DNA of 64,000 nt from an uncultured Alphaproteobacteria bacterium (GTDB lineage: Bacteria > Pseudomonadota > Alphaproteobacteria > HIMB59 > GCA-002718135), in the NCBI GenBank assembly GCA_902525035.1, contig CABZFN010000001.1, forward strand, positions 70,010 through 134,009, given 5' to 3'. Numbering within the stretch: position 1 is the stretch's first letter; each line of letters begins with the position of its first letter. This document shows positions 497-64,000 of this stretch, in pieces. The notes under the pieces were generated by a model. The model did no database searches and was not told the DNA's origin. It saw only the letters and a list, made by a program, of their open reading frames with translations. Made by a program: the position numbers and the translations under genes.

Positions 497-499
497 AAT

Positions 500-4044
<3,545 letters not shown>

Positions 4045-4050
4045 AGATTA

Positions 4051-5280: not shown

Positions 5281-5804
5281 GTATGAAACTTTTAATTGTA
5301 GATGATGATTTACCTTTTAGAGAAAGGCTTACAAGATCTATGGAAAAAAAGGGGTTTGAAGTTACTTCTTCTCCTAGTTTTAAAGATTCTATAGCTAAAG
5401 TAACAGAAAATAACTTTGATTATGCAGTTGTTGATATGAGATTAGAGGATGGTTCTGGACTAGAATTAGTTAAGGAATTACAAAAGATTAGTCCACAAAC
5501 TAAATCATTATTGTTAACTGGTTATGGTAATATTGCAACAGCTGTTGCAGCAATTAAATCTGGTGCAATAGACTATTTACCTAAACCAGCAGAAATTGAT
5601 CAAATTTATGATGCACTCACTAATTCAAAGGAAATTTTACCACCTCCACCTGAAAATCCTATGACTGCTGATAGAATTAGATGGGAACATATTCAAAGAG
5701 TGTTTATACAGTGTAATAGAAATGTATCCGAAACAGCAAGACGATTAAGAATGCACAGACGTACATTGCAGAGAATACTGAATAAACATGCTCCAAGAGA
5801 ATAA
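5277..5804 (+). CDS. regA: Response regulator RegA/PrrA/ActR family (REC domain plus Fis-type HTH)
   Basis: 175 aa with a REC domain (LLIVDDD...VVDMRLEDGSG...KP) and the C-terminal HTH NVSETARRLRMHRRTLQRILNK typical of RegA/ActR. 4-nt overlap with regB. Confidence 0.8.
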   Translation: MSMKLLIVDDDLPFRERLTRSMEKKGFEVTSSPSFKDSIAKVTENNFDYAVVDMRLEDGSGLELVKELQKISPQTKSLLLTGYGNIATAVAAIKSGAIDYLPKPAEIDQIYDALTNSKEILPPPPENPMTADRIRWEHIQRVFIQCNRNVSETARRLRMHRRTLQRILNKHAPRE

Positions 5805-6819
5805 AAAAACTTTATCAATAGTAATACCAGTTTTTAATGAAAGTAACTTTCTTTGTAAACTTTTCGATGACATCAAAAATCATTTTAATAAAGAAAATAT
5901 TGAAGTAATAATAGTAGATGACGGATCTACAGACGGCTCTACTGAAATATTAAACGATTTAAAAAAAAAACAAGACTATAAATTCTTATTTGAAATAATA
6001 AAACTTGAATCTAATTCAGGTAAAGGGAACGCAATTCAAATTGGAATACAAAAAACTGAGGGAGAATATGTACTTCTTCAGGACGCGGATTTAGAATTAG
6101 ATATCAAAGATGCAAAAGAGATGTTTGATATGATAATTTCAAACAAAGATATTAAATGTATATTTGGGAGTAGGTATCTATCTGGTAAATTAAAAAAAAA
6201 TAATTATTTTTTCAACAATCTTATTGGAAAATTAAATTCTTTAATTTTTAATATTTTTTTTTCACAATCATTAAGTGATGTTCATTGTGGATTAAAGATT
6301 TTACATAGGAATGTTATTGAAAGGATTAGACTAAGTGTTAATGATTTTGGTATTGAAATTGATTTAGCTTCTCAAATTGTAAGAAATAATTTTTTTATCT
6401 ATGAATTTGGTGTCTCGTATTTTTTTAGATCTAAAGCACAGGGAAAAAAAATAACTTGGGTAGATGGTTTAAAATCTTTTTATTATCTTATTAAAGTAAG
6501 ATTTTTTGACAATTCTACTTCAACAAATTTATCTATATTATTTTCTTCTATTTATATGGCATTTGTAGGATCACATTTTGGCATGGGGTTAGGAAATACA
6601 TTATTTATTTTTACTTTTTTTATTTTAGGCTCTGTATTGGGAATTCATTTTAAAATCTTTTCTTCATCTATAATATTCTTCTTTATTTTTATTGGTTCAT
6701 TATTTGGCAAAGGTAATGGAACAACATTTTCTGTTATTATTTTCTTTTTTTTAGGATTATTTATTGCAAGAAAATCAAAGAAATATTTCTTAAATTCTAA
6801 TTTTAATCATTATCTTTAA
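5788..6819 (+). CDS. Family 2 glycosyltransferase with C-terminal transmembrane segments (polyprenyl-phosphate sugar synthase-like, GtrB/ArnC/DPM1 type)
   Basis: 343 aa. GT2 signature is present (SIVIPVFNE...VDDGSTDGS...LQDADLE), and the last ~110 aa are strongly hydrophobic. The start overlaps the regA end by 17 nt. Confidence 0.75.
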   Translation: MLQENKKTLSIVIPVFNESNFLCKLFDDIKNHFNKENIEVIIVDDGSTDGSTEILNDLKKKQDYKFLFEIIKLESNSGKGNAIQIGIQKTEGEYVLLQDADLELDIKDAKEMFDMIISNKDIKCIFGSRYLSGKLKKNNYFFNNLIGKLNSLIFNIFFSQSLSDVHCGLKILHRNVIERIRLSVNDFGIEIDLASQIVRNNFFIYEFGVSYFFRSKAQGKKITWVDGLKSFYYLIKVRFFDNSTSTNLSILFSSIYMAFVGSHFGMGLGNTLFIFTFFILGSVLGIHFKIFSSSIIFFFIFIGSLFGKGNGTTFSVIIFFFLGLFIARKSKKYFLNSNFNHYL

Positions 6820-8125
6820 GTTTACTTAAACCCATACAGAGTCCAATAATAAAGAAAGTTGTTACACCATACCAGTTTTTAATTAAACTTCCCGTAGACA
6901 TAATTGGCCAGAACATCAATAAAATAATAACCAAAGAGATGATTTTGTATTTCTTATCACCACTATTATTAAGTATAAAACTTACTAAGAAGTATACGTA
7001 TAATATAAATATAATAAATACAATTAAACCACCCTCTGCTAACCACTGAATATAAATATTATGTGGATGAGATGCACATTCATAATTAATCATCATTTTT
7101 TTATATGAATCATTATATTTACATAAGTACTGAAAATTATTTATTCCAATTCCTGTAATTGGATTATCTAAAAACATCTTGTATGATAATAAATAAATTT
7201 CTCCATAAGCTGATGTACTAAAATTTTTAATAACTTCAAAAAAACTAGGTTGAACATTTAAAATCTTTGAGCATAATTTTTCTGAGTCATCATTGCATTT
7301 GAAAACTTTTTCAATTTTTTGACCTTGATGATATTGAGTGGATTCAATAATCTTAAAATCATTATAAAAAGGATGCAAGTAAATCGATACAAATATAAAT
7401 AAGGCTCCCAAAGCTAATGATAAAAATATTGATCTTCTAAAACCCTTTAAAAGTATTAATAAAATAGATAAACTTAATGCAAACGTTGCAAATGCCATTC
7501 TCTCCCCGGATACATAACTAATCAATAGTATTAATGATAAATAAATTGGAAGAATAATTGTCTTATTTTTCAATTTTTTAATTGAAATAAGTATTACAAA
7601 TCCAAACAAACCAAATTTAGATACATAAGATCCAGGTATTAATTCATCTCCAAATGGACCAGTTAACCTGCCATACCAATTAGATTTAAATCCAAATATA
7701 TCTTTACCAAAACCATTTTCAGAAGTATAGTTTAAGAACTGATAAAGAGTATCTAAGCAAACAAAAATAACAAGAAATAAAATTAAGCATAAAGTTTGTT
7801 TAAAAATTTTTATATTTTTAAAAAATATAAAATAACAAAGAAATGGTATCAATAATAACCTTATAAAAATAAAAGCATCTTGAAATGAGTTTATCTTATT
7901 ATATGAAAATACACTTATAAATAAAAGACCCAACCACAATATTATGGATATTCTAAAATAATTAATTTTAATTAAATTTTTATATTCTTTAATATAAACA
8001 AGGCTAATAATACCAAATATTGAACCTAATGAAATTATTATATCGGGAATTGCTGGTCCTGTTATAAGTAATAGTGGTATTAAAATAAAAAGATATTTTA
8101 GAATCTTTTCAGACTGTATCATCAT
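6803..8125 (-). CDS. O-antigen ligase/polymerase-like polytopic membrane protein (Wzy_C family)
   Basis: 440 aa with about 10-12 predicted TM segments, a large loop, and a Wzy_C-like motif (...GIGINNF...HPHNIYIQWLAEGGLIVF). Convergent 17-nt overlap with the GT2 gene. Confidence 0.65.
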   Translation of the reverse strand: MMIQSEKILKYLFILIPLLLITGPAIPDIIISLGSIFGIISLVYIKEYKNLIKINYFRISIILWLGLLFISVFSYNKINSFQDAFIFIRLLLIPFLCYFIFFKNIKIFKQTLCLILFLVIFVCLDTLYQFLNYTSENGFGKDIFGFKSNWYGRLTGPFGDELIPGSYVSKFGLFGFVILISIKKLKNKTIILPIYLSLILLISYVSGERMAFATFALSLSILLILLKGFRRSIFLSLALGALFIFVSIYLHPFYNDFKIIESTQYHQGQKIEKVFKCNDDSEKLCSKILNVQPSFFEVIKNFSTSAYGEIYLLSYKMFLDNPITGIGINNFQYLCKYNDSYKKMMINYECASHPHNIYIQWLAEGGLIVFIIFILYVYFLVSFILNNSGDKKYKIISLVIILLMFWPIMSTGSLIKNWYGVTTFFIIGLCMGLSKLKDND

Positions 8126-49692: not shown

Positions 49693-52083
49693 ATGAAATT
49701 TACTTTAGATTGGCTTAAAGATCATTTAAATACTTCTGAAAATTTAAATACTATAACAGATACTTTAACCAATATTGGTTTAGAGATTGAAAGTGTAGAA
49801 GATAAATCAGAAATATTTAAGAATTTTACAGTAGCTAAAGTTTTAAAAGCAGAAAAACATCCAGATGCAGATAAACTTAAAGTATGTCAGGTTCAAACAA
49901 TAAGTGGAAATTATCAAGTTGTATGTGGTGCCCCAAATGCAAGAGAAGGGATGCTTGGAATTTTTGCGCCAGAAAATAGTTACATTCCAGGAACAGACTT
50001 ACATTTAAAAAAAACTAAAATAAGAGGAGTTGAGTCTTGTGGAATGCTTGTATCAGAGAGAGAAATGGGTATTTCTGATGAACACGATGGTATTATTGAA
50101 ATAAAAGATAATTATAAAATTGGTGATTTATTTAGTAAAATTTTTCCAATAGATGAACCACTTATAGAAATTAATTTAACTCCAAACAGATCTGACTGTT
50201 TATCAGTTAGAGGTATCGCAAGAGATTTAGCTGCAGCTGGTATTGGTAAACTAAAAGAATTAAAATATAATAAAGTAAAAGAATCATTTAAAAGTCCAAT
50301 TACGTGGAAAAAAGAATTTGAAAACAATAATCTATGTCCTGGGGTATCAGGTCGATATTTCAAAAATGTTAAAAATGTAGAGAGTCCTAAATGGCTTCAA
50401 GATAGATTAACTGCAATCGGATTAAGACCCATTTCAGCTCTTGTTGATATCACAAATTATATTACTTTTGATTTAGGAAGACCACTACATGTTTATGATG
50501 CTGACAAAGTTTCAGGCAATTTAACAATGCGATTAGCCAATAAAAATGAACAGTGTTTAGCACTAAATGAAGTTAATTATAAATGTGACAGTGATATGAT
50601 TGTAATTTCTGATGATGAAAATAAACTTCATGGAATTGGAGGGGTTATGGGTGGTCTCGATAGTGGTTGTAGTATGGAGACTAAAAATGTTTTTCTAGAA
50701 GTTGCGTTATTTGATCCGGTTTCTGTCACTAAAACTGGAAGAAAACTTAATCTTCAAAGTGATGCACGTTACCGTTTTGAAAGAGGGATAGATACTGATT
50801 CCATTTATTGGGGTGTAGATGCTGCAACACAAATGATTTTGGAATTATGTGGAGGTGAATTAAGTCAATTCGTTTCTTCAGAAATTAATATAGAAAAAAG
50901 TAAACCATTTATGTTTGATACAAATAAAGTGAGGACTTTTGGTGGAATAGAAATAAATAATGAGGAACAAGAAAAAATTTTAGTTTCACTTGGTTTTTCT
51001 GTTAATGAAAAAAAATCAAAATTTGAAATTCTAAGCCCTACTTTTAGACCAGATATTGTTGGTGAGGCAGATATAGTAGAGGAAATAATTCGAATTTATG
51101 GTTATAATAAAATTCCTCTTAAAAAAGTAACTAATCAAGAAGAAAAAAAGCAGATTTTAAATACCAAAACAAAAACTTTTTATAAAAGTAAAAAAACTAT
51201 GGCTCTGAATGGATATTCTGAAGTTGTAACCTGGTCGTTTATGGATGAAAATAATGCAAAAATTATATCAGATGAAATAATTAGTTTAAAAAATCCTATA
51301 AGTTCCGATTTAAATACGATGAGACCATCTACGCTTCCAAATTTATTAGAAGCAATCAATCAAAATAAATCTAGAATGTATCTAAGAGCAAAAATATTTG
51401 AAGTAGGTCCAAATTTTTCTAAATCACTACCTGATCAACAAGAAAATGTTGCCACTGCTATAGCTTATGGCCCATCTGATGAACAAAATTGGTTATCAAA
51501 TAAAAAAAATATTGATGTCTTTAGTATAAAAACTGATTTATTTGCTATTTTAGCTGATTTAAATGTACCTATAGCAAATTTGCTATATGAAAAATTAGAA
51601 GGTAAAATTTATCATCCTGGCAAATCATCTTCTTTGAGGCTTGGTAAAAACAAAATAGCTAATTTTGGAGAATTACATCCAGTTCTATTAAAAACAATGG
51701 ATGTTAATTTCAAGGTATACGGTTTTGAAATATATTTGGAGAATATTTCACAATTTCAAGAGAATAAATCTTTTTCAAAAGGAGGTTTTACTAACAATCC
51801 CTATCAAATGGTTGAAAGAGACTTTGCCTTTCTTTTCCCAAAAGAAGTAAAGGCTGGTGAGATAATTAAAAAAGTAAAAAAAATAGATAAAAATATAATT
51901 CAAAACGTAACAATATTTGATGTTTATGATGGTGATAAACTTCCAGAAAATAAAAAAAGTATTGCTTTTAGGGTACTACTGCAACCTCAAGACAAAACAT
52001 TCAACGATCAAGAAATAGAGGAATTATCACAAAAAATAATAGACCAAATATCTAAATCGCTTGATGCTTCTATAAGAAACTAA
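49693..52083 (+). CDS. pheT: Phenylalanine--tRNA ligase beta subunit
   Basis: 796 aa with an N-terminal tRNA-binding (EMAP-like) domain, B3/4 and B5 domains, and a C-terminal FDX-ACB domain. Confidence 0.95.
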
Positions 52084-53885
52084 TGACAGAACTTAGTTCT
52101 ATTCGTAATTTCTCAATTGTTGCTCACATAGATCATGGAAAATCAACGTTAGCCGATAGACTAATACAGTTTTGTGGCGGTTTAACTGATAGGGAGATGA
52201 AAGAGCAGGTTTTAGATTCAATGGAATTAGAAAGAGAAAGAGGTATTACAATAAAAGCTCAAACAGTTAGACTTTCTTACAAATCAAATGATGGCAAGAC
52301 GTACATACTTAATATTATGGATACACCAGGTCATGTTGATTTCTCATATGAGGTATCAAGATCTTTAGCAGCGTGTGAGGGGTCTTTATTAATAGTTGAT
52401 TCTACACAGGGTGTTGAGGCTCAAACATTAGCTAATGCTTATCAGGCTATTAATAATGATCATGAAATTTTACCTGTCCTAAATAAAATTGATCTTCCTT
52501 CTTCTGAGCCAGATAAAATAAAATCACAAATTGAAGATGTGCTAGGTATTGAAACAGAAAATGCTTCTCTTGTTTCAGCAAAAACAGGTGTGGGCATAGA
52601 AGATTTATTAAATAAAATTATAACTTTTCTCCCTTATCCATCAGGTGAACTAAGTAAAGAACTAAAATGTATGTTAGTTGATAGTTGGTATGACAGCTAT
52701 CTTGGTGTTGTGGTACTTGTAAGAGTTATAAATGGTGAATTAAAAAAAGGTCAGAAAATAAGATTTATGGCAACAGGTGCTACATATACAATTGATAGAG
52801 TAGGAATATTTTCTCCCAAGGCAACTGAAGTAGATACACTTGGACCTGGAGAAATTGGTTTTATAAATTCTGGTATTAAAAGTGTTTCTGATTGTAAAGT
52901 TGGTGACACAATAACAGATGATAAACTTCCAACAGAGGAAGTTCTTTCAGGTTTTAAACCATCTCAACCTGTTGTTTTTTGTGGTATGTTCCCAGTTGAT
53001 TCAGATGATTACGAACACATGCGTGATAGTATGGCTAAACTTGCTTTGAATGATTCAAGTTTTTCTTATGAACCAGAAGTAAGTCCTGCCTTAGGTTACG
53101 GCTTTCGTTGTGGTTTTTTAGGTTTGCTACATTTAGAAATTATAAGAGATCGTTTTGAAAGAGAATTTAATTTAGAGCTTGTAACTACTGCTCCATCAGT
53201 TGTTTATAAAATTTTAATGAAAGATGGATCAACAATTAATCTTCACAATCCTACGGATATGCCTGATCCAGTTAAAGTAGAAAATATTTCAGAGCCTTGG
53301 ATAAAGGCAACAATTATTGTTCCCGAAGAATTTTTGGGATCAGTATTAGAATTATGTACCTCAAAAAGAGGTATTCAGGTAAATATGAGTTATGCAGGAA
53401 ATAGACCATTAGTTGAGTATAAACTTCCACTCAATGAAGTTGTTTTTGATTTTTATGATAGATTAAAATCAATTACGAAAGGCTATGCAAGTTTTGATTA
53501 TGAAATTACAGGATATGAGATAAATAATTTAGTTAAAGTAGGGATACTTATCAATGGAGATCCAGTAGATGCTTTATCTTTAATTGTTCACAAAGATAGA
53601 TCTGAGCAAAGAGGTAGAGCACTTTGTGAAAGATTAAAAGATTTAATTCCAAGACAACAATTTAAAGTTGCAATTCAAGCAGCGATTGGAGGTAAAGTAA
53701 TTGCGCGTGAAACTGTAGCTTCATTTAGAAAAGATGTAACGCAAAAACTATATGGTGGTGATGTTACAAGAAAGAATAAACTTTTAGATAAACAAAAAAA
53801 AGGTAAAAAAAGAATGAGGCAGTTTGGAAAAGTTGATATTCCACAAAATACTTTTTTAAATGCTTTAAAAATGAATGATAACTAA
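52083..53885 (+). CDS. lepA: Elongation factor 4 (LepA)
   Basis: 600 aa with GTPase motifs ([18 protein letters not shown]) and the LepA-specific C-terminus. Confidence 0.97.
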
Positions 53886-53890
53886 ATTTA

Positions 53891-53980
53891 GGAGAGATGT
53901 GAGAGCGGTTTAATCAGCACGCTTGGAAAGCGTGTGTAGTAGCAATACTACCGAGGGTTCGAATCCCTCTCTCTCCGCCA
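53891..53980 (+). tRNA. tRNA-Ser (anticodon GGA), CCA encoded
   Basis: Hand-folded. Acceptor GGAGAGA/TCTCTCC, D stem TGA/TCA, anticodon stem CACGC/GCGTG with loop TTGGAAA (anticodon GGA at 53925-53927), a long variable arm, T arm GAGGG-TTCGAAT-CCCTC, discriminator G, then CCA. It closely parallels E. coli tRNA-Ser(GGA). Confidence 0.93.
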
Positions 53981-53984
53981 TAAA
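53909..53984 (+). repeat. Direct repeat copy 1 (attL-like): 3' 72 nt of tRNA-Ser plus 4 nt downstream
   Basis: The 76-nt string tttaatcagcacgcttggaaagcgtgtgtagtagcaatactaccgagggttcgaatccctctctctccgccataaa is identical to 56088-56163. Confidence 0.95.
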
Positions 53985-54019
53985 TTAAGATTTTTCTTTA
54001 ACGATTTTTCAACAAAAAT

Positions 54020-54086
54020 ATGTTTCGACACACATACGGCGCACTCACGAAACCTATTTCATCTCAACATTCCTCTTGGTTAGTGG
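54020..54086 (+). repeat. C/A-rich motif copy R1 plus conserved leader
   Basis: Core tcgacacacatacggcgcactcacg (54025-54049), followed by aaccta...acatt...ttggttagtgg. This is homologous to R2. Confidence 0.8.
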
Positions 54087-54099
54087 TAAGATAATTTGG

Positions 54100-54402
54100 A
54101 TGAAATATTTTTTAATATTTGTATTTAGTTTAACGGTAATAGGATCATTAATTTATGGATTGGGATATTTATATTTAACTAATAATCAAGATTTTAGTGA
54201 GACATCTCTAAATTTTTTTCAAATATATATTACTCTGTGGAAAATATTATTTAATTTATTCAATGACGAAGCTTCTTTATTACAAAATATATTTGCACTT
54301 ATAGTTTTTTGTATTTTTATTTATTTGCATCAACTCATTTATGCAACATGCAAATATATTTACGTATATATTAGGGATGGTGGAGAAGATAAATATGATT
54401 AA
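54100..54402 (+). CDS. Hypothetical small membrane protein (module 1, gene a)
   Basis: About 100 aa from the ATG at 54100 (the track ORF uses TTG 54076), with 2-3 hydrophobic helices (FLIFVFSLTVIGSLIYGLGYLYL; IFALIVFCIFIYL). The stop overlaps the next gene's start (ATGATTAA). Confidence 0.55.
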   Translation: MKYFLIFVFSLTVIGSLIYGLGYLYLTNNQDFSETSLNFFQIYITLWKILFNLFNDEASLLQNIFALIVFCIFIYLHQLIYATCKYIYVYIRDGGEDKYD

Positions 54403-54982
54403 AAAAGATAGAATAATTCCAAAAGATCTAGAGGATATTATTAGAAATTCTGAAAGACCCGAAGCTCCATTTGCAAATAAAGAAGTTAATAGAATAGTTG
54501 ATTTAAAAATTAAGGAATACGAGAAAACTTTTAATGAACTAACACATGATTTGAGTGAATTTCAAGTTAACAATTTTAAAGAAATTAATTCCATATATAA
54601 CACAATTGAATGGCATTTAAAAATACTCAAAAAGAATGATTATCAAAATCAAATGCTTCAATGGGAACATATAAATAAATTTGAAGACAACATTAAATCT
54701 ACTATTGAATTAACCGTTTTTACGCAACATGACTTAACGATACCAAATCATTATAATCTTAATTTGGTGGAATGGCATTATTTTTATAAAGATGATAATA
54801 TGGATAGTGACTTATTTAGTATAGATATAACTATCGATAATAAAAATATTAGAATAGATAATAATGAAATTTATAGTGAGAAAAGATATTCCGAAATGCT
54901 TGGTTTTTCCTCATCCATATTCAAATATTTATATTTGGGAGGTAATTTAGAAGATTTTAACAAACCTCCAACTTATCTTTAA
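54395..54982 (+). CDS. Hypothetical soluble protein (module 1, gene b)
   Basis: 195 aa from the ATG at 54395, preceded by GGAGA 8 nt upstream. No recognisable domain. The N-terminus MIKKDRIIPKD is paralogous to that of the 55378 gene. Confidence 0.6.
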   Translation: MIKKDRIIPKDLEDIIRNSERPEAPFANKEVNRIVDLKIKEYEKTFNELTHDLSEFQVNNFKEINSIYNTIEWHLKILKKNDYQNQMLQWEHINKFEDNIKSTIELTVFTQHDLTIPNHYNLNLVEWHYFYKDDNMDSDLFSIDITIDNKNIRIDNNEIYSEKRYSEMLGFSSSIFKYLYLGGNLEDFNKPPTYL

Positions 54983-54994
54983 TTAAATAAAAAT

Positions 54995-55060
54995 AATCCT
55001 CGACACACATACGACCCACTTACATACGTTTTTTAACCTAAACATTATTTTTGATTAGTG
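54995..55060 (+). repeat. C/A-rich motif copy R2 plus conserved leader
   Basis: aatcctcgacacacatacgacccacttacatacg (54995-55028), followed by aaccta-acatt-ttgattagtg. It starts 13 nt after the stop of gene 1b. Confidence 0.8.
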
Positions 55061-55080
55061 CTATTCTAAAATCTTTTAAT

Positions 55081-55371
55081 ATGGACTCTTATATAATTAT
55101 TTTATTAGTAAGAATATTTGTTGATGTAGCTTTTTTAGTAATTCTTTTTTTTGTTCTTATTTTTGGTTCTCTTACTTTTTTAAATCGTAATGGTATATAT
55201 AATTCTGATGCCGGCCTTTATTCATGGTCAATAATGTTAGGAGGAATGATAATAATTGACTATCTATTAGTTAAAAACAATATTCCTATAGGTTTTACTA
55301 ACCTATTAAAATTGCTTGGTTTTTTAGATATTGATTGTCAAAGAATTCATATATTTAGTAAATGTATTTAA
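55081..55371 (+). CDS. Hypothetical small membrane protein (module 2, gene a)
   Basis: About 96 aa from the ATG at 55081 (the track ORF uses TTG 55051), with two or three hydrophobic helices (IIILLVRIFVDVAFLVILFFVLIFGSL; WSIMLGGMIIIDYLL). Confidence 0.55.
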   Translation: MDSYIIILLVRIFVDVAFLVILFFVLIFGSLTFLNRNGIYNSDAGLYSWSIMLGGMIIIDYLLVKNNIPIGFTNLLKLLGFLDIDCQRIHIFSKCI

Positions 55372-55377
55372 AATTAA

Positions 55378-56004
55378 ATGACTAAAAAAGAAAAAATAAC
55401 AACAAAAGATTGGGCTTACCTAGGAGATGTTAAGAATGGTAAGCCACATGGTTTTGGAAAAAAAAATTTTTATGAAAATCTAGCAGAAAAAATATTAGAT
55501 AAAAAAGTAAAACTCTCTGACAAAGAATTTAATACAAGTTTCTGTGATAGTGGTTTGGATTATTTTTCCCAATATGTAAGAGGCTCAGAGGAAGGTCACT
55601 ATAGGGAAGGAAAATTGCATGGTCTATGTAAAATTGAAATTAAACAAATTGAAATAATTCAAGAAGAATTCAAATTAAATGAAGAAGGTTTTCTCTCAGA
55701 AGGATGGAGCCAACTTCACGCGATTTTTAATAGAGGAATACCTAATGGCAACGCACTACTTTATGGCCCTGAATATTCTTCAATGACCTCTAAAGATCAT
55801 CTTAATCCAAAATCTATTAATTATGTAAGTTTTTATTATGGTTCTTTATATAGTTTTGTAAATGATCTTGAATTTGATTCATCCCAAGTAATTGATGCTA
55901 GCAATGATTTAGAAAATTTTAAATTATCACAAATAGAAAATGAACCTAGTACAAGCGATGAAGTAGTAAAAAGATTAAAAGAAGTCGAAAAAAAAATGAG
56001 GTAA
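55378..56004 (+). CDS. Hypothetical soluble protein with MORN-like repeats (module 2, gene b)
   Basis: 208 aa. The start is 6 nt after gene 2a. It has MORN-like Y.G....GK.HG.G units (WAYLGDVKNGKPHGFGKK; GHYREGKLHGLCKIE). Confidence 0.6.
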   Translation: MTKKEKITTKDWAYLGDVKNGKPHGFGKKNFYENLAEKILDKKVKLSDKEFNTSFCDSGLDYFSQYVRGSEEGHYREGKLHGLCKIEIKQIEIIQEEFKLNEEGFLSEGWSQLHAIFNRGIPNGNALLYGPEYSSMTSKDHLNPKSINYVSFYYGSLYSFVNDLEFDSSQVIDASNDLENFKLSQIENEPSTSDEVVKRLKEVEKKMR

Positions 56005-56035
56005 TCCTCGTCGCACATACGACACACTTACACAC
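56003..56035 (+). repeat. C/A-rich motif copy R3
   Basis: aatcctcgtcgcacatacgacacacttacacac, overlapping the stop codon of gene 2b. It lies 52 nt upstream of the attR-like tRNA fragment. Confidence 0.8.
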
Positions 56036-56087
56036 CCGGTATTTACTTTTTCACGTTTAATTTTTCTTAGAAACCCTACACTTTGTA

Positions 56088-56163
56088 TTTAATCAGCACG
56101 CTTGGAAAGCGTGTGTAGTAGCAATACTACCGAGGGTTCGAATCCCTCTCTCTCCGCCATAAA
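56088..56163 (+). repeat. Direct repeat copy 2 (attR-like): orphan 3' fragment of tRNA-Ser (lacks the acceptor 5' strand and most of the D arm)
   Basis: 76/76 identical to 53909-53984. The upstream sequence (ctacactttgta) cannot form the acceptor or D stem, so this is not a functional tRNA. Confidence 0.95.
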
Positions 56164-56185: not shown

Positions 56186-58012
56186 CTAATAAATTATATT
56201 ATTTTTTAGCAAGTTTAGACAGCCAAGATTATTAGGATAAAAAAATATATAATTAAATTTTTTCTTTATTTTTTTAAAACATACTACTTTTTTTTCAGGA
56301 ATACATAATGGATCTATGTCTCCACAAAATAATATATAATTATCATCTTTCTGAATATTTCCAGCATACAAAATAGGAGTAGGTAATCTTATTTTTATTG
56401 TAAATCCATCAATATTTTTTTCATAATAATCTTTTCCAATAACTAATTTTTCAAAACTTTTCATCTCATTAAGTGAAATATTTAACTCATCTAAATTTTT
56501 TATTGTGTTCGGAATATTGTAAAAAAAATTACTAGAAAAAATTATTAATAAAAAAAAAATTAATATTTTTTTATTATAAAAAAATTTCTCATAATAAAAT
56601 CTCGTGATTATTTTTATTGAAATTAAACTAAAAAAAATTGAAAATAAAGCGTAACCAGCAAATCTTGATTGTGGAGTTTTGAAAAACCAAAATAGTATAG
56701 ATAACAAAATTAAAATAATAAGAAAATTTTCAATTTTGGTAACTTCAGGTTTTTTATTTGGTCTAAATTTAATAAAAATAAGAATAATAAAAATTAAAAT
56801 TAAACTTGTTATTGGAATATTTAATAACCTATTTATATCATGGTCCATTAACCAATATTTAGTCCAAAACCTTACATCAGATTTAATATAATCTTTATGA
56901 TTTAAAATATTTTCTGCTTCAGACCAAACAAATTTGTCACTTGTAGTATTTATTGATTTTGAATAAAACATATATCCCTTTGATGAAGCTTCAAGTAGAT
57001 TCATTCTTTTAGAAGTAATTTCTTGATCAAGAGTCCAATTAATTGTTTCTATACATGTGAAGTTTACAGGGTAGAAAATACAACCAGTATTTATTAAATT
57101 TTTTGTAAAGAACGTAAGTGATAAAATAATAATAAATATTGTAAATCTAAGATTATTTATAATTAATCTATTTTCTTTAATTAGTAAAAATATACAATAT
57201 AGTAACAAGGGAAGTATGAAGATGGAGTTTATTCTAAAGATTATTGAAGTAGTAAAAAATAATATTGAATAGAATAAATAAATATTGGACTCTTTTTTAT
57301 AATTATATTTTAATAAATTAATAAACCCAAGAGTTATAAATATTTGAGGAGGTACATCTGCGCCATGATCTTTTAATTTTGAAAATACAACTATTGAAAT
57401 AGCAAGTATAATAAAAGTTATTAATTTAACTTTTAAAAATTCTGAATTTAGAATTTCTATAGTTAAAAAAGAAATAAAACAAAAAAAAATTAAATAATTT
57501 AAAATAAAGTTTAGTTCAAATTTATATGGAGGTAAGGCAAATAACGCAGAGTAATTAAACCAGCTCATATATGGATTTGCTAAAACATCATTGAAATTTA
57601 CTAATCCAAAAATAATTTTATAACTATTAATCAAGTTAAGATATGGGAGATGGTGATAGTAAAAATCTTCATGTAAATTATTACCCAACAAAAAAGGAAA
57701 TAGAAAAATTGTTATAAAAAATAAAATCTTTAGAGAATTATTAATATTAATTTTCTTGGAATAAATTATGAAAAATAATAAGCCTAGTAAATTAACAACT
57801 ATAATTATTAAAAAATCTATTTTATAAAAAAAATGTATGAATATTCCAATAAAGGTTAATAATGGTATAGATAGTAGATATAATTCAAATAGATTTGAGT
57901 TATCATTATTATTAAATATAAGTTTTTTGAAAAAAAAACCATATCCAATTGATGAAAAAAAAATTAAAAATAAATATAGATAAATAATTATTATTTTGTA
58001 AATTATAAACAT
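56186..58012 (-). CDS. Large polytopic membrane protein, GT-C-like glycosyltransferase / glycan polymerase candidate
   Basis: 608 aa with more than 12 hydrophobic helices, an acidic/aromatic first-loop motif (LHEDFYYHH) and a C-terminal soluble region of ~100 aa. It is divergent from sugar-nucleotide modification genes. Confidence 0.4.
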   Translation of the reverse strand: MFIIYKIIIIYLYLFLIFFSSIGYGFFFKKLIFNNNDNSNLFELYLLSIPLLTFIGIFIHFFYKIDFLIIIVVNLLGLLFFIIYSKKININNSLKILFFITIFLFPFLLGNNLHEDFYYHHLPYLNLINSYKIIFGLVNFNDVLANPYMSWFNYSALFALPPYKFELNFILNYLIFFCFISFLTIEILNSEFLKVKLITFIILAISIVVFSKLKDHGADVPPQIFITLGFINLLKYNYKKESNIYLFYSILFFTTSIIFRINSIFILPLLLYCIFLLIKENRLIINNLRFTIFIIILSLTFFTKNLINTGCIFYPVNFTCIETINWTLDQEITSKRMNLLEASSKGYMFYSKSINTTSDKFVWSEAENILNHKDYIKSDVRFWTKYWLMDHDINRLLNIPITSLILIFIILIFIKFRPNKKPEVTKIENFLIILILLSILFWFFKTPQSRFAGYALFSIFFSLISIKIITRFYYEKFFYNKKILIFFLLIIFSSNFFYNIPNTIKNLDELNISLNEMKSFEKLVIGKDYYEKNIDGFTIKIRLPTPILYAGNIQKDDNYILFCGDIDPLCIPEKKVVCFKKIKKKFNYIFFYPNNLGCLNLLKNNIIY

Positions 58013-58018
58013 ACTTAA

Positions 58019-58888
58019 ATGAAAAAAATACTTATCACTGGGGGAGCTGGTTTCATAGCTTCAAATTTAATCAAATTAATTTTAGATAATAATTCAAAAG
58101 TTTTCATATATTCTTACGACAATTATTATTCTGGTTCTCGAAAAAATCACATTAAATCAACTAAAGTAAAATATATTAAAGGAGATACTCAAAAAATAAA
58201 TAAAAACAGATTTTTAAAAAAAATAAATTTTGATCACGTTTTTCATTTTGCAGAATTTTCAAGAATTGTCCCTAGTTTTGATAATTATGATACTTGTATT
58301 AAAACTAATACATATGGAACCTTTGAAGTTATTAAATTTTGTTTAGAGAAAAAAGCAAAATTAATTTATTCAGCATCTTCAAGTACAATTGGTAATAATA
58401 AATTTCTTTCACCTTATTCCTGGTCAAAATATGCAAACAATGAGTTGATCAAAAATTTTTCAAAATGGTTTGGTTTGAAATATGTTATAGTATATTTTTA
58501 TAATGTATACGGACCAAATCAAATAACTAAAGGACATATGTCGGCTGTTATAGGTATTTTTGAAAAACAATACTTATTAGGAAAACCATTAACGGTTGTA
58601 AAGCCTGGGACTCAAAAAAGAGATTTCACTCATGTTGAAGATATAGCTAATGGGACATATCTAGCAGCAACTAAATCTTTAAACTCTGAATTTCACTTAG
58701 GTTCTGGAAAAAACTACTCTATTATAGAAGTAGCTAAAATGTTTAAAAGCAAATATAAACTCGTATCAGAACGGCCTGGAGAAAGATTTTATAGTCTATC
58801 AAAATCAAATAAAGCAAAAATACAATTAAAATATAGAATTAAGAATGATTTAATAAGTTATATAAGAAATTTTATAAATAAGAAATAA
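58019..58888 (+). CDS. NAD-dependent sugar-nucleotide epimerase/dehydratase (extended SDR)
   Basis: 289 aa with the Rossmann motif ITGGAGFIASNL and the catalytic YSWSK (YxxxK). Confidence 0.75.
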   Translation: MKKILITGGAGFIASNLIKLILDNNSKVFIYSYDNYYSGSRKNHIKSTKVKYIKGDTQKINKNRFLKKINFDHVFHFAEFSRIVPSFDNYDTCIKTNTYGTFEVIKFCLEKKAKLIYSASSSTIGNNKFLSPYSWSKYANNELIKNFSKWFGLKYVIVYFYNVYGPNQITKGHMSAVIGIFEKQYLLGKPLTVVKPGTQKRDFTHVEDIANGTYLAATKSLNSEFHLGSGKNYSIIEVAKMFKSKYKLVSERPGERFYSLSKSNKAKIQLKYRIKNDLISYIRNFINKK

Positions 58889-58889
58889 A

Positions 58890-60323
58890 TTGAAGAATTT
58901 ACAAACATACACAATTATAGGTGCAGGACCTTCTGGTCTTGCTGCAGCAAATGAACTATCAAAAAACAAAAATAAAGTTACCGTATATGAAAAGGCTGAT
59001 TTAGTTGGTGGTTTAGCCAGAACAATAGAATACAAAAATTGCAAATATGACATAGGACCTCACAGATTTTATACTCTCAATAAAGAGGTAAATGAATTTT
59101 ATAAAAATACTTTAGGGCCAGATAGTATTACGGTTAAAAGATTAACTAGAATTTTTTATGATAAAAAATATTTTTATTATCCACTTTCACCATTTAATAC
59201 ACTTATAAACCTAGGAATAATAAAAGCGTTTAAGATACTTACAAGCTATTTTTTTTCTAAAATAAAATCAATATTCAATTATAGCAAAATAAAAAATTTT
59301 GAAGATTGGGTTATTTCAAATTTTGGATCTGAATTATATAAAACTTTTTTCAAAAGTTATACCGAAAAAGTATGGGGAATTGAATGTAAAAATATTAGTA
59401 AAGATTGGGCTGCACAAAGAATTAAGAATATAAGTTTTTTTAATGTATTTTTTAATTCTATAATTAAGAAAATAAGAAAGAAAAAAGTAAAATCTCTTGT
59501 AGATTCATTTCAATACCCAAAATATGGAGCTGGTTTTTTTTATAAAAAACTATCTAATAAAATCATAGAAAATGGTGGAAAGATTGAACTTAATTCAAAG
59601 CTTACTCAAATAAATCATTTAGATTATAAGATTAAAAATATTGTTATAAAAAATAGTACTGGAATAGTAGATATAGAAACAGATTTTTTTATTTTTAGTA
59701 ATCCTTTTACTGAAATTATAAGACTATTAAATCCTAAACCACCGCAAAATATTCTAGAGGCATGTAATAATTTAAAATATAGGCATCACATAGGAGTTAA
59801 ACTTGAAATTCATGGACCTATTTTTCAAGATAATTGGATATATGTTCATGATCCAAGAGTTAAAATGGCTAGAATTTCTAATTATAAAAACTTTTCTCCA
59901 TACATGTCGAATAGTATTAATATAAATCCTATTACAGTTGAGTATTTTTGTTTTGAAAATGATAAGATTTGGAACTTGACAGATCAAGAAATTATATCAT
60001 TTGCTATTAAAGAATTAAGATTAGCTGGTATTATTGATTTTAATAATACCGTTAAAAATTCTTTTATAGTGCGTTCATTAAATGCATACCCGGTAATAGC
60101 TAAAGATTACCAAAAATATGTATTAGAAATAAGAAATTATTTAAGAAAATTTAGCAACTTATTCCCTATAGGTAGATCAGGAATGTTTAAGTATAATAAT
60201 CAAGATCATGCTATTGCGACAGGAATGTATATGGCCAGAAATTTAATTAATAAAGATTTTGATATTGATATATGGAATATTAATAGTGAAGGAGTTTATG
60301 TGGAAGGTGAAATAAAAGATTAG
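58890..60323 (+). CDS. FAD/NAD(P)-binding oxidoreductase (amine-oxidase / UDP-galactopyranose-mutase-like fold)
   Basis: 477 aa with the N-terminal dinucleotide motif IIGAGPSGLAAA...VYEK. TTG start 1 nt after the SDR stop. Confidence 0.6.
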   Translation: MKNLQTYTIIGAGPSGLAAANELSKNKNKVTVYEKADLVGGLARTIEYKNCKYDIGPHRFYTLNKEVNEFYKNTLGPDSITVKRLTRIFYDKKYFYYPLSPFNTLINLGIIKAFKILTSYFFSKIKSIFNYSKIKNFEDWVISNFGSELYKTFFKSYTEKVWGIECKNISKDWAAQRIKNISFFNVFFNSIIKKIRKKKVKSLVDSFQYPKYGAGFFYKKLSNKIIENGGKIELNSKLTQINHLDYKIKNIVIKNSTGIVDIETDFFIFSNPFTEIIRLLNPKPPQNILEACNNLKYRHHIGVKLEIHGPIFQDNWIYVHDPRVKMARISNYKNFSPYMSNSININPITVEYFCFENDKIWNLTDQEIISFAIKELRLAGIIDFNNTVKNSFIVRSLNAYPVIAKDYQKYVLEIRNYLRKFSNLFPIGRSGMFKYNNQDHAIATGMYMARNLINKDFDIDIWNINSEGVYVEGEIKD

Positions 60324-60324
60324 A

Positions 60325-62304
60325 TTAATTTATTTTTTTACACCAAAACTGGTACATACCTGAAAAAATTCTTGAATTATTTTTTTCAAAATCTTCCCAT
60401 TTATCTAGATCATATAGATCATTTGTCTGATTATATTTTTTTTTAAATCGATCTAAAACATATGTGTCTTCAAATCCTAAAAAAATTAATCCTAACTTGT
60501 TCATATGACTTCTTATTTTTTTAATTGTAAATCTATGCTCCTGTACATGAAATAATAAATCTCTGACTCCACTTGTTGAATAAAAATCTGGACTAAATTT
60601 AACACTATCCCATGCTGTTATGTTATTTTCAAAAATATCTTTTCTAAAATTAATAATATTTTTTTTTGTAATTTTGATTCTTAAACTATTTATTTTTTCT
60701 CTTATATTTACAATATTTTCTCGAGCTTTTTCACTATATAAACCAATTAACATCAGAGCATCTTTTTTTAAACAATCAGTTATGCATTCCCATCCTACTA
60801 GTGGATCAGCCATATGATGTAGAACACCAACAGATTCAATAATATCGAATTTTTTATCCAATTTTCTTAAGTCTAATAAATCTCCTTGAATAAAGTTTAT
60901 ATTTTTAAAATTTAATTCTTCGGCTTTTCTTTTTGCATAGGATAAACTATTAAAACTTAAGTCTAATGCAAAAATTTCTGAATTTTTGTATTTAGAAGCT
61001 GTAGTTATTGCGTGTTGTCCAGTACCACATCCAGCGATTAAAATTTCTGGATTTTTAGAAAAATTTAATTTTTTAAAATCTACATTTAAATTTATATTTT
61101 CAATTACTTCATTTATAACTCTGGGCTCAATACTTAAACCAAGATTAGTCCATCTAGGATATGGATTTTCTTCATATTGATTTTTGACTTTTATTGATAT
61201 TTTATCATTAATTTTTGAAATTGATTTTATTTTTTGGATATATTTTTTTTCTTCATTATAATTTCTATATTGTAATATAAATGTCTCTTTTAATTCATTT
61301 GAAGGATTTATTTTTTTACACCAATCAAAGCTATATAATGGAGAATAACAAGATAATATAAGTATTTCTAAATCATTTATTTCTTTTGTATTAATATTTT
61401 TTTTAATTCTTTCATTAATCGTATTAACTTTAAATCTTTCTTCATCTGTCTCATAATATACATATTCATTTAAAAAACATTGAGCTGATAATGAAATTAA
61501 GAATTTCAAATAAATATTTTTAAAATTTAAATTATAAATTTGATTTAAAATTTCATTTCTAATTTTAATGAAATTTTTTTCAATGTAATAATTAGAAATA
61601 GGACAAACTTTCATAAATTTTAACAAAAGTTTATTCTTGTTTAATAATTCTATTATTTTATCCAAATTTTTTGGATAGATGTTATTTTCTAATAAAAAAA
61701 AATTATCTTTTAAATTTGTATTTAAAAATAAACCATTTATTACATTTGTAGCTATAGCATTTGGTCGAACAATTATTTTTTTTTCAAGAAGATATAATAA
61801 AAATTTATTTATGTATTTATTCTTCTCATCTAATATGTAATGTTGAAGAACTCCGGATAAATTGTAAAATCCTCTTATATAATTTGGGTTTATGGTGAGT
61901 GTTTGTATATAATAATCAAGAGCTTTTTTATTTAAATTTCTTTTTCTAAATATATTTCCTAAGTTATTGTAAGCCTTATAATAACTCTTATCTAATTCTA
62001 TAACTTTTTCATAATTTTTGATTGCATTGTCTTCTTCACCAAGTTTGTTATAAATATTTGCTAGGTTATAATATCCGTCATTGTATTTTGGGTTTAAATT
62101 TATAACTTTTATAAATAGTTTTTTTGCTAAAAAGTAATTTTTTAGTTCAGTATGAATTACTCCTGAAATATTATTTATTAAGATTGAATTAGGGTAGTCA
62201 CTGATAGTTCTATTAGATAAATCAAGAGCTTCTAAATATTTTTTTTTATTAAATAAGAATATTATTTGTTCAATAATATTTTTATCAGGTTCTTCTTTAA
62301 TCAT
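60325..62304 (-). CDS. TPR-repeat protein fused to a class I SAM-dependent methyltransferase
   Basis: 659 aa. The N-terminus has ~5 TPR-like units (A...Y.KVI.L.P.Y..AY.NLGN), and the C-terminus has methyltransferase motif I (ILIAGCGTGQHA) and post-I (ALDLS). Confidence 0.7.
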   Translation of the reverse strand: MIKEEPDKNIIEQIIFLFNKKKYLEALDLSNRTISDYPNSILINNISGVIHTELKNYFLAKKLFIKVINLNPKYNDGYYNLANIYNKLGEEDNAIKNYEKVIELDKSYYKAYNNLGNIFRKRNLNKKALDYYIQTLTINPNYIRGFYNLSGVLQHYILDEKNKYINKFLLYLLEKKIIVRPNAIATNVINGLFLNTNLKDNFFLLENNIYPKNLDKIIELLNKNKLLLKFMKVCPISNYYIEKNFIKIRNEILNQIYNLNFKNIYLKFLISLSAQCFLNEYVYYETDEERFKVNTINERIKKNINTKEINDLEILILSCYSPLYSFDWCKKINPSNELKETFILQYRNYNEEKKYIQKIKSISKINDKISIKVKNQYEENPYPRWTNLGLSIEPRVINEVIENINLNVDFKKLNFSKNPEILIAGCGTGQHAITTASKYKNSEIFALDLSFNSLSYAKRKAEELNFKNINFIQGDLLDLRKLDKKFDIIESVGVLHHMADPLVGWECITDCLKKDALMLIGLYSEKARENIVNIREKINSLRIKITKKNIINFRKDIFENNITAWDSVKFSPDFYSTSGVRDLLFHVQEHRFTIKKIRSHMNKLGLIFLGFEDTYVLDRFKKKYNQTNDLYDLDKWEDFEKNNSRIFSGMYQFWCKKIN

Positions 62305-63882
62305 TTATATTACTGAAGATATTAGTTTTTTTGTATATTCTGATTTAGGTGAAACAAAAATATCTCTACTATAATTTTCTTCAACAATTAAACCATCTTT
62401 TAAAACAATTATTTTATTAGCAATAGCTCTTATAACTCTCATATCATGACTTATAAAAATATAACTTAAGTCTAGTTCTTTTTGTAAATTATTTAATAAA
62501 CTTAATATTTGATTCTGAATTGTTACATCTAATGCTGAAGTTGGTTCATCTAATATTAGTATTTTAGGTTCTAAAATCAAAGCTCTAGCAATTGCAATTC
62601 TTTGTCGTTGACCACCAGAAAATTCATGAGGATATTTTTCTATTGTATTTTCATAGACTAAACCAACTTTTTCCAAAATATTTTTTAATTTTTTTCTTTT
62701 TTCTCTTGAACTAATATTAGGATAATGAACCATTAAACCTTCTGATATAATATCTTCGATATTCATTCTTGGACTTAGGGATGAGAATGGATCTTGAAAT
62801 ACAACTTGAATATTTTTTCTTAAATCTAAAACCTCTTTTTTACTTAAATTATTTAAATTTTTTTTATTTATTATTATTTCTCCTTTAGATTGTATTAATT
62901 TTAGAATTGCCAAAATAAGTGACGTTTTTCCTGAACCAGATTCGCCCACAATTCCAATAGTTTCTCCAATTTTTAAATTAAAGCTTACATTCTTAATTGC
63001 TTTTACATAGTCAATTGTTCTTCTAAGTAATCCTTTTTTTATGGGATACCAAACATTTAGATCCTTAATACTTATTATTGATTCACTTTTTTGATTACTG
63101 TTTTCTTTAATATTACTTTCATTGGATACTAATTCTTTAGTATATTCATGTTTAGGATTATTAAATATTATTTCTTTTGTACCAAATTCAATTACTTTAC
63201 CATTTTTCATGACATATATATAATCTGATAATTTTTTTACTACAGAGAGATCATGGCTTATAAAAACCATAGACATACCCATTTTTTTTTGAATATCTTG
63301 TAATAACTCTAAGATTTGTAATTGGATAGTTACATCTAAAGCTGTAGTTGGCTCATCGGCTATTAATAAATCTGGTTCATTTGCAATACTCATCGCAATC
63401 ATAGCTCTTTGTCTTTGTCCCCCCGATAGTTCATATGGGTATATTTTTGGTCTTGATGAAATATCACTAAGGCCAACTTCATTTAGTAATTTTATAGTTC
63501 TTTTTTTTGCTTCTTTTTTACTTAGCGTATTATGTGTAGTAATTATTTCTTCAATTTGCTTATTTATTGTATGTAGTGGGTTTAAACTCGTCATTGGTTC
63601 CTGAAATATTGTTGAAATTTTATTTCCTCTTATATTTTGAATTTCCTTTTGACTTAAATTCAACAAATTTTTATTATTATATATTATTTTTCCTGTTTTA
63701 ATGTTGGCTCCATTAGGCAATAATTTTAATATGCTTAGAGCTGATAATGTTTTACCTGATCCAGACTCTCCAACTATTGCTGTAGTTTTACCTTTTACTA
63801 CATCAATATTTACATTTCTAACTACGTCAGTATATTTATTAAACCCTATACTTAAGTTATTTATTGATATTATTTTTTCCAT
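62305..63882 (-). CDS. Peptide/opine-type ABC transporter, fused double ATP-binding protein (YejF-like)
   Basis: 525 aa with two complete ABC cassettes (GESGSGKT x2, LSGGQRQR x2, DEPT x2). Confidence 0.85.
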   Translation of the reverse strand: MEKIISINNLSIGFNKYTDVVRNVNIDVVKGKTTAIVGESGSGKTLSALSILKLLPNGANIKTGKIIYNNKNLLNLSQKEIQNIRGNKISTIFQEPMTSLNPLHTINKQIEEIITTHNTLSKKEAKKRTIKLLNEVGLSDISSRPKIYPYELSGGQRQRAMIAMSIANEPDLLIADEPTTALDVTIQLQILELLQDIQKKMGMSMVFISHDLSVVKKLSDYIYVMKNGKVIEFGTKEIIFNNPKHEYTKELVSNESNIKENSNQKSESIISIKDLNVWYPIKKGLLRRTIDYVKAIKNVSFNLKIGETIGIVGESGSGKTSLILAILKLIQSKGEIIINKKNLNNLSKKEVLDLRKNIQVVFQDPFSSLSPRMNIEDIISEGLMVHYPNISSREKRKKLKNILEKVGLVYENTIEKYPHEFSGGQRQRIAIARALILEPKILILDEPTSALDVTIQNQILSLLNNLQKELDLSYIFISHDMRVIRAIANKIIVLKDGLIVEENYSRDIFVSPKSEYTKKLISSVI

Positions 63883-63883
63883 T

Positions 63884-64000
63884 TTAATTAAAAGTCTTTC
63901 TTGGGTCTAGTGAGTCTCTTATTGCTTCACCTACAAAAACTAAAAGGCCTAACATTAAACCTAAAGTTAAGAAACTTGTAATTCCAAGCCATGGGGCTTG
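63884..64000 (-). CDS. ABC transporter permease, C-terminal end (DppC/OppC/YejE-like); 5' part lies outside the window
   Basis: The reverse-strand translation to the window edge is QAPWLGITSFLTLGLMLGLLVFVGEAIRDSLDPRKTFN*. GEAIRDSLDPR is the typical C-terminus of peptide-ABC permeases. The stop is 1 nt before the ATPase start. Confidence 0.8.
   Translation of the reverse strand, partial: QAPWLGITSFLTLGLMLGLLVFVGEAIRDSLDPRKTFN

Follow-up and report, generated by a model that had tools for sequence, protein, structure and literature searches.

A small integrase-less insert at a SAR11 tRNA-Ser(GGA) gene, probably one of a family of non-autonomous cassettes that accumulate in tandem

In the 64,000-nucleotide (nt) window analyzed here (contig CABZFN010000001.1, positions 70,010 to 134,009), a tRNA-Ser(GGA) gene is followed by two modules of two genes each, a1/b1 and a2/b2. 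The region is best explained as a small insert, lacking an integrase, within the 3' part of this tRNA gene in a member of the Pelagibacterales (SAR11), belonging to a family of non-autonomous cassettes that accumulate in tandem; the probability of this reading is put at roughly 0.78. The tRNA gene and its perfect 76-nt 3' copy are a classic pair of attachment (att) sites, attL and attR: positions 53909-53984, comprising the last 72 nt of the tRNA and four further bases, recur as a direct repeat at 56088-56163 (76/76 identical, offset 2179 nt). The insert (53981-56087, 2107 nt) has exactly four open reading frames (ORFs), namely a1, b1, a2 and b2. No integrase, excisionase or replication genes were detected by ORF and profile scans in the insert or in the 64-kb window, and Rfam identifies only tRNA in the region, besides spurious sub-threshold matches on the tRNA variable arm. 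Confidence is high that the insert is a cassette bounded by att sites and that its two modules are not paralogous.

The borders of the modules are marked by a tandem repeat. The motif CACATACGNCNCACTNAC occurs exactly three times in the 64 kb, against 0.01 copies expected by chance. One copy precedes module 1, one separates the two modules and one follows module 2; the third had been missed in the initial annotation of this DNA, as had the 76-nt direct repeat around the whole region. The motif has the architecture (NNNNNCAC)ATA(NNNNNCAC), in which two 8-mers lie in direct orientation, one helical turn apart. Because of where these copies fall, the similarity observed between the modules marks module borders, not diverged gene copies.

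The initial annotation had instead treated the modules as diverged paralogues, the products of a tandem duplication of a two-gene unit whose bodies had changed past recognition while the 5' ends were kept. The ORFs and similarities that it described are real. The four ORFs are where it placed them, as are the a1/b1 stop/start overlap ATGATTAA (54395-54402) and the 6-nt a2-b2 gap before 55378. Two hydrophobic segments are present in each of a1 and a2, and such segments are absent from b1 and b2. The modules resemble each other in size and arrangement and repeat at a period of 975-1008 nt, and their leaders are similar (72% identity over 81 nt, 54008-54088 versus 54983-55063). The first 33 nt of b1 and b2 agree at 27 positions, and no other 33-mer in the window, on either strand, reaches 26/33 against b1. 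However, a global DNA alignment of the two modules stays at background identity except at the leader and the b start; b1 and b2 align at their N-termini only (BLASTP E 0.018), with protein similarity stopping after 11 residues, and a1 and a2 are dissimilar. Homologues of a1 (to 85% identity), b1 and b2 (to 86%) occur elsewhere without the supposed twin. The leader, which had been taken as the retained part of duplicated genes, is the attachment-site arm of a mobile cassette, and also precedes unrelated cargo at tRNA-Ser, tRNA-Arg and tRNA-Gly elements. Ratios of nonsynonymous to synonymous substitution rates (dN/dS) are below 1, with no sign of runaway diversification. The N-termini of the b1 family and of the MORN family, to which b2 is related, are each conserved within their own family in other contexts, and the 27/33 match is thus most simply a matter of two Lys-rich N-termini; an origin by recombination is a possible alternative. 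The resemblance between the modules therefore appears to stem from a common arm and Lys-rich N-termini, and not from duplication, a reading that is already largely refuted and very improbable.

Cassettes with the same borders are found in other SAR11 genomes. A scan for an extended form of the motif, in a collection with one genome per species, identified it in eight Pelagibacterales single-cell genomes, seven of which have tandem arrays beginning at a full tRNA-Ser(GGA). In AG-319-D07 and AG-426-C22, lepA lies shortly upstream of the array tRNA, matching the window. An array unit consists of an X arm (equivalent to ~53981-54099 of the window), cargo, a Y arm (~56005-56087) and a partial tRNA, either nt 19-90 or, together with a second Y-arm type, nt 22-90. 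Units range from ~0.4 to 12 kb, with two to five or more in succession, and even the smallest (0.4-0.8 kb) have complete arms. Different units carry unrelated cargo, which includes glutaminase-ankyrin, ammonium transporter, MORN, caspase/Agenet and GDSL-like genes as well as a 4-12-kb multi-gene metabolic set, and the array cargo scanned contains no Phage_integrase match. The metabolic cassette is located directly 3' of the tRNA in AG-426-C22. In AG-414-E06 and AG-426-I04 it is preceded by an extra, different cassette and a partial tRNA, a shift in position that is expected if new units enter at the tRNA. Across the seven genomes, different cassettes occupy the one tRNA-Ser, which amounts to replacement by other units at the same site.

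Other arm and array types are also present. A second right-arm class (..TAACCCAATAATTAAAAATTAAC..CCCTCAACTCTTT) occurs in the L066, L079, L080 and L064 arrays (for example D07_10847, E06_14015 and K07_3638), where it is paired with partial tRNA copies starting at nt 21-29, mostly 22, versus nt 19; this class suggests a second integrase specificity at tRNA-Ser. A second array type is located at tRNA-Arg(ACG) in AG-319-D07 (L198; CABXIT010000009.1, 4381-6956), with a 52-nt partial tRNA-Arg copy at 5841-5892. There, a different direct repeat of ~45 nt (..AAAAAGTTGGCCGTTTG..) brackets the first cassette, and the next gene is an a1 homologue that overlaps an unrelated gene, b3. In AG-439-L02 (L058, 4892-5039), CGACACAC-ATA-CGACACAC lies 46 nt downstream of tRNA-Phe(GAA), where it may represent a cassette's X arm at a different tRNA; a partial tRNA copy was not noted in that 8-kb locus, in which no search was aimed at tRNA-Phe fragments.

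The arms are well conserved. The X arm of the window is 79-91% identical to the sequence after full or partial tRNA-Ser copies in seven SAR11 single-cell genomes, and the Y arm is 82-94% identical to the sequence before partial tRNA-Ser copies in the arrays and in L056. Within the repeat, five bases vary among cassettes (CGGCG, CGGCA, GGTTG, TGTCT, GGTCT, TGGCA and GGCTA). These bases agree between the two half-sites, and usually also between the X and Y copies of a given cassette. X and Y repeats match at 15.4 of 17 positions within a cassette versus 13.2 of 17 in other pairings, a value that none of 20000 permutations equalled; when repeated copies of one cassette are removed, 1/20000 is as high. 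A mobile segment composed of Y spacer, partial tRNA and X spacer (~163 nt), with the repeats as its target-site duplication, was also considered, but is ruled out, since the matching repeat copies bracket the cargo and not the tRNA fragment.

The internal border of the window (54983-55080) does not contain this 163-nt spacer-tRNA-spacer segment. With a Y-like left side, an X-like right side and no tRNA segment, it fits a deletion between two repeat copies: two cassettes would have been fused, the intervening partial tRNA being lost by recombination. Alternatively, a repeat plus leader might constitute an internal module border. A homologous solo border precedes an a1-family gene in the single-cell genome AG-457-I08, so the middle border, too, could be a regular one of this type.

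The leader itself, GTTAGTGGTAAGATAAT, recurs before the first cargo genes of L198, L199 and the AG-426-I04 array, and near cargo in L231, L243 and L265. It carries TGgTAAGAT, which resembles an extended -10 element and ends 8 nt ahead of the a1 start codon; this suggests a candidate promoter for a near-leaderless cargo mRNA; in a cassette, it would drive the first cargo gene. A role as a general SAR11 promoter is ruled out, as there is a single exact copy in the 64 kb. The features of the region are collected in Table 1.

Table 1. Features of the tRNA-Ser(GGA) insert and its borders (positions are those of the window)
Feature	Position	Strand	Remarks
lepA	52083-53885		upstream neighbour of tRNA-Ser(GGA)
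tRNA-Ser(GGA), intact	53891-53980	+	ARAGORN; Rfam tRNA 53.1 bits
attL core	53909-53980	+	3' 72 nt of tRNA-Ser(GGA)
X arm	53981-54099	+	45-nt spacer, then tandem repeat copy 1, then leader
Tandem 8-mer repeat, copy 1	54026-54044	+	CGACACAC-ATA-CGGCGCAC, 11-nt period
Leader	54079-54095	+	GTTAGTGGTAAGATAAT
a1	54100-54402	+	100 amino acids, two hydrophobic segments
b1	54395-54982	+	195 amino acids, soluble orphan-family protein
Internal junction without tRNA copy	54983-55080	+	left Y-like, repeat copy 2, right X-like with diverged leader
Tandem repeat, copy 2	55001-55019	+	CGACACAC-ATA-CGACCCAC
a2	55081-55371	+	96 amino acids, two hydrophobic segments
b2	55378-56004	+	208 amino acids, MORN-repeat protein
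Y arm	56005-56087	+	repeat copy 3, then conserved 60-nt spacer (..CACCCGGTATTTAC..)
Tandem repeat, copy 3	56009-56027	+	CGTCGCAC-ATA-CGACACAC
attR	56088-56163	+	copy of tRNA-Ser nt 19-90 plus TAAA; 76/76 identical to 53909-53984

Relatives of this arrangement do encode integrases. A metagenome scan with the conserved 5' untranslated region (UTR) of such integrases matched 84 loci, 80 of which were fetched, and in 33 of the 80 an integrase homologue immediately follows the 5' UTR pattern. Loci with enough upstream sequence have a consistent order: tRNA, 25-50 nt, an element-specific tandem repeat with an 11-nt period, 5' UTR and integrase. The tRNAs include Gly-GCC, Arg-ACG/TCG/TCT, Phe-GAA and others, and the repeats include GGTAGCAC-ATA-GGTAGCAC, CTTGTGTAACA occurring twice, and CGGATAAC-CTA-CGGATAA. 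The X arm of the window has this same layout minus the integrase gene, with the repeat joined to the leader before the first cargo gene. In L204, L225 and L228, an attP layout is visible (repeat, ~95 nt, partial tRNA-Gly, ~45 nt, repeat, integrase). The same repeat variant is present on both arms of each of these, and the variants differ among the contigs (GTGTCGA, GTCGAC and GGCGAC). L225 (metagenome contig Ga0208159_1002243, locus 1-6827) has a 99-nt terminal overlap and is therefore a circle of ~6.7 kb. It encodes a tyrosine integrase, an HTH_17 (Xis/AlpA-like) protein and a Toprim+DUF5906 primase/helicase, and is probably an excised tycheposon-like or satellite-like element from a marine low-GC host. 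Longer integrated members carry sugar ATP-binding cassette (ABC) transporters, dehydrogenases and glutathione-synthesis genes, and do not carry phage structural genes. A search for a second att copy at the distal side of L231, L242, L243 and L265 found none, as these loci stop short of it.

Homologues of the genes in the window are found among these elements. Homologues of b1 (45-46% identity) are convergent with a Phage_integrase gene beside a partial tRNA-Phe, and in L199 an integrase gene next to a partial tRNA-Gly is directly followed by an a1 homologue (78%) and then a MORN gene. The view that the four ORFs are accessory, horizontally mobile genes in a tRNA hotspot, put forward in the initial annotation, is thus supported. 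The L199 integrase has 100% protein identity to those of L231, L265 and L277, which carry a sugar ABC transporter operon; the genes behind a single integrase therefore change rapidly.

The 55 matches to the motif in viral contigs all represent chance or an unrelated high-GC gene, and were discarded. Neither the island DNA nor the b1 protein matches GenBank phages, and an integrase alignment recovered a single relative (32% identity) among viral contigs. On one low-GC contig classified as viral (IMG/VR contig 3300042934_001332, loci L087 and L153), at least three tRNA-Ser-like 3' fragments of 26-45 nt lie a few kilobases apart; this contig may be another tRNA-anchored array filed as a virus.

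The layouts of the arrays and the circles suggest how such cassettes could be mobilised. A circular cassette, in the order cargo, repeat, Y spacer, tRNA-like core, X spacer and repeat, would be recombined into tRNA-Ser by a tyrosine integrase supplied in trans. Recombination would regenerate the tRNA and leave its old 3' part as attR. The tandem repeats would be putative arm-type binding sites of the integrase and, in autonomous elements, maybe also an int operator. Arm-type sites are a feature of heterobivalent tyrosine integrases, exemplified by the P1/P2 and P'1-3 sites of phage lambda. The repeats are best read as sites of this type because they are direct, spaced one turn apart, present on both arms, of one consensus within an element and lineage-specific. 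Like the lambda sites, they are short direct repeats about one turn apart, on both arms, tens of base pairs from the core, and one consensus per element differs between integrases. Unlike in lambda, the SAR11 integrase-less cassettes have no cognate protein in cis, and the sites are putative. Whether the cassettes are still mobilised in trans, with the repeats serving as putative integrase arm sites, is judged to be an even question.

Several observations weigh against this reading. Autonomous elements with the same arm architecture occur at tRNA-Gly, tRNA-Arg and tRNA-Phe, but none was found at tRNA-Ser(GGA) with these exact arms, and no integrase of related type is detectable in the window or the arrays by tblastn with three related integrases. 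The Y-arm pattern has no match in viral contigs; the last 29 nt of tRNA-Ser have 108 matches there, 80 of which were examined, and none has the 72-nt core or the arms. Integrase-less cassettes were not seen in circular form, and present-day mobility is thus inferred only. The correspondence of the repeats is also imperfect: the ends of cassettes 1 and 3 of AG-426-I04 and cassette 4 of AG-414-E06 are unmatched, and the half-sites of the window are themselves mixed. In four genomes, arrays were rebuilt by joining two 8-kb loci of one contig, and adjacency at the joints is backed only by ORFs reading through three of the four. Finally, the repeats could instead be operators or iterons.

It may also be that the region is an inert scar, in which the decayed remains of prophage, satellite or tycheposon integrations are now immobile and the arms are conserved through recent decay only. 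Integrase, excisionase and replication genes are indeed absent from the insert and the window, and the partial tRNA has been lost from the internal junction. Degenerate elements and scattered partial tRNAs have been described in Prochlorococcus islands (preprint 10.1101/2020.12.28.424599). However, the attL and attR cores are identical at 76/76 positions, and both arms are 80-94% conserved across divergent genomes in which the cargo is entirely different. The covariation between half-sites and between X and Y copies would not outlast neutral decay. Complete arms are retained in units of just 0.4-0.8 kb, and array content varies among genomes at both proximal and internal positions. An immobile scar is accordingly a distinctly less favored explanation than a cassette family, at odds of perhaps one in several.

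The four proteins are largely orphans. Homologues of a1 have 78-85% and 43% identity, with dN/dS of 0.15-0.23, and a1 has no Pfam, PADLOC or significant PHROG match. There are 15 metagenomic homologues of b1 (41-98% identity; dN/dS 0.43-0.55), and an alignment of the family contains the invariant motifs NKFxDNIKSTIE, EWHYFY and IFKYxxLGGxLE. Relatives of b1 are mosaic, with N- and C-terminal halves of different types recombined between sequences; P0003, for example, combines an 'MNKNYR' N-terminus with a C-terminus of the window type. One b1 fragment, P0014, continues in frame into an aminotransferase class V gene; it lies at one end of L057, a 9.4-kb contig that includes an Fe-S cluster operon. 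The fusion is a probable assembly chimera and was not used. The a2 protein has a single weak relative, P0025 (33% identity, E 8e-4), and is unrelated to a1. A MORN repeat is detected at residues 14-28 of b2 (Pfam PF02493, 24.3 bits versus a cut-off of 22.5). Only two full-length relatives of b2 were found, and its N-terminal ~25 residues are common to the larger MORN proteins P0018, P0019 and I04_4395. In searches of all four proteins against Pfam, PHROGs and PADLOC, the b2 MORN repeat is the only significant result, and PDB sequence searches returned no match. AlphaFold2 models were too poor for a fold search, with predicted local distance difference test (pLDDT) scores of 45.7 for b1 and 43.9 for b2. 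Taken from their sequences, the four ORFs appear to be independent mobile cargo genes under purifying selection: a1 and a2 encode predicted small membrane proteins, b1 a soluble orphan and b2 a MORN-repeat protein.

The initial annotation had further proposed that each a/b pair is a two-component accessory system, for superinfection exclusion or abortive infection, as toxin and immunity protein, or as holin and effector. This proposal concerns the role of the cargo and does not conflict with the mobile-cassette reading. In its favor, the gene next to the leader belongs to the a1 family in each of four independent contexts and is closely linked to a soluble partner, via an ATGAYTAA overlap (the window and L198) or a 6-nt gap (L199). 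A position adjacent to att or int is typical of moron or defence cargo, and a1 is under purifying selection. However, the pairing does not recur as such in other genomes. The partners of a1-family genes belong to four unrelated families (b1, b3, a MORN protein and 'c'), and b1 is seen without any a-like gene: at one locus, b1 (86% identity) is preceded by a soluble ORF of 119 amino acids and not by a1, with a breakpoint ~30 nt before the b1 start. The lack of relationship between a1 and a2 and the unusably poor structure models count against a two-component system as well. The defence, phage, toxin and holin classes proposed also found no counterpart, with no PADLOC hits and nothing significant in PHROGs or Pfam except the b2 MORN repeat; the partners of the a1 family, MORN repeat aside, likewise have no match in Pfam, PHROGs, PADLOC or PDB sequences. 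The idea survives in a weak form, in that the first gene repeatedly encodes a small membrane protein while its soluble partner varies, but two-component function is unlikely overall, and nothing yet appears to link the four proteins to defence or toxin functions.

Immediately past attR, the G+C content drops to 17-25% (56186-64000). Genes in this stretch encode a 608-amino-acid polytopic membrane protein and NAD-dependent epimerase-like and FAD oxidoreductase-like proteins, and the stretch looks like a cell-surface glycosylation island beside the cassette site.

Among known systems, cis-mobilizable elements (CIMEs) offer a close comparison. These integrase-less, att-flanked derivatives of integrative and conjugative elements (ICEs) and integrative and mobilizable elements (IMEs) accrete in tandem, as known from the Streptococcus thermophilus literature. 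The window insert likewise has att sites on both sides and no mobility genes; tandem accretion at the 3' end of one tRNA or gene and presumed mobilisation by an integrase in trans are further similarities. Unlike CIMEs, the SAR11 cassettes reside in a streamlined marine alphaproteobacterium with no known conjugative partner, and are far smaller and more numerous. Integrons are also similar in some respects: small cassettes of one or two genes, mostly promoter-poor and with diverse orphan cargo, occur in series, each has its own recombination site, and the integrase is encoded elsewhere. However, the SAR11 site consists of a tRNA-like core and direct repeats, and not of an attC inverted-repeat hairpin, and the cassettes are inserted in a tRNA gene and have no IntI, attI or Pc. 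With direct border repeats and no integrase, the insert is not an integron cassette.

Tycheposons and related islands in Prochlorococcus combine tRNA integration, partial tRNA repeats, side-by-side elements and degenerate remnants (Hackl et al., preprint 10.1101/2020.12.28.424599), and in Pelagibacter, tyrosine-recombinase elements, tycheposons included, have been reported near tRNAs (PMC11876622). As in tycheposons, integration at the tRNA 3' end leaves a partial copy, successive elements are split by partial tRNAs, and the cargo is made up of genes for nutrient uptake and genes without a known function. L225 and L228, with an integrase, an Xis-like HTH protein and a primase/helicase but no capsid or conjugation genes, are similar as well. 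The window insert and the single-cell arrays, by contrast, have no integrase and no replication module, which places the insert outside the tycheposon definition, and their units are as small as 0.4-2 kb, each with a complete att module of ~200 nt and matched repeats on both arms. The insert fits a non-autonomous derivative, as a tycheposon-like or CIME-like additive island. Additive flexible islands with recurring 20-bp tRNA-Lys 3' repeats are known in 'Ca. Methylopumilus' (Methylophilaceae; PMC10872708). These also involve a fixed tRNA in a streamlined planktonic bacterium, with tRNA 3' repeats between variable and mostly hypothetical genes. In SAR11, however, the repeat is 69-72 nt with arms on both sides, and each cassette has its own tandem 8-mer.

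No description of the SAR11 tRNA-Ser arrays was found in the SAR11 population-genomics papers examined or in wider literature searches, in a library that is itself incomplete. The density of very small cassettes keeping a full att module appears to be new, as do the covarying tandem repeats on both arms; the region as a whole is only moderately novel. A broader and tentative possibility, doubtful at present, is that SAR11 maintains an integron-like cassette economy at tRNA genes, with hundreds of integrase-less mini-cassettes of 0.4-2 kb, each bearing a ~200-nt att module that mimics a tRNA. In such an economy, the paired 8-mer repeats would be an address label for one integrase lineage on rare autonomous elements such as L225, and cassettes that encode no mobility function would be captured and reshuffled, with a built-in leaderless promoter driving their expression.

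For the four proteins, the outcome is sobering: they are mobile orphan cargo, one MORN-repeat protein among them. For SAR11, the most abundant and among the most streamlined of ocean bacteria, the gain and loss of flexible genes is poorly understood. Here, one variable site is made up of tiny integrase-less cassettes with a complete and conserved attachment module, and autonomous circles that bear an integrase share this module architecture. Mobilisation of the cassettes in trans, if it occurs, would provide a minimal genome with a cheap means of sampling orphan genes, and the element-specific repeats would offer a directly testable handle on integrase specificity.

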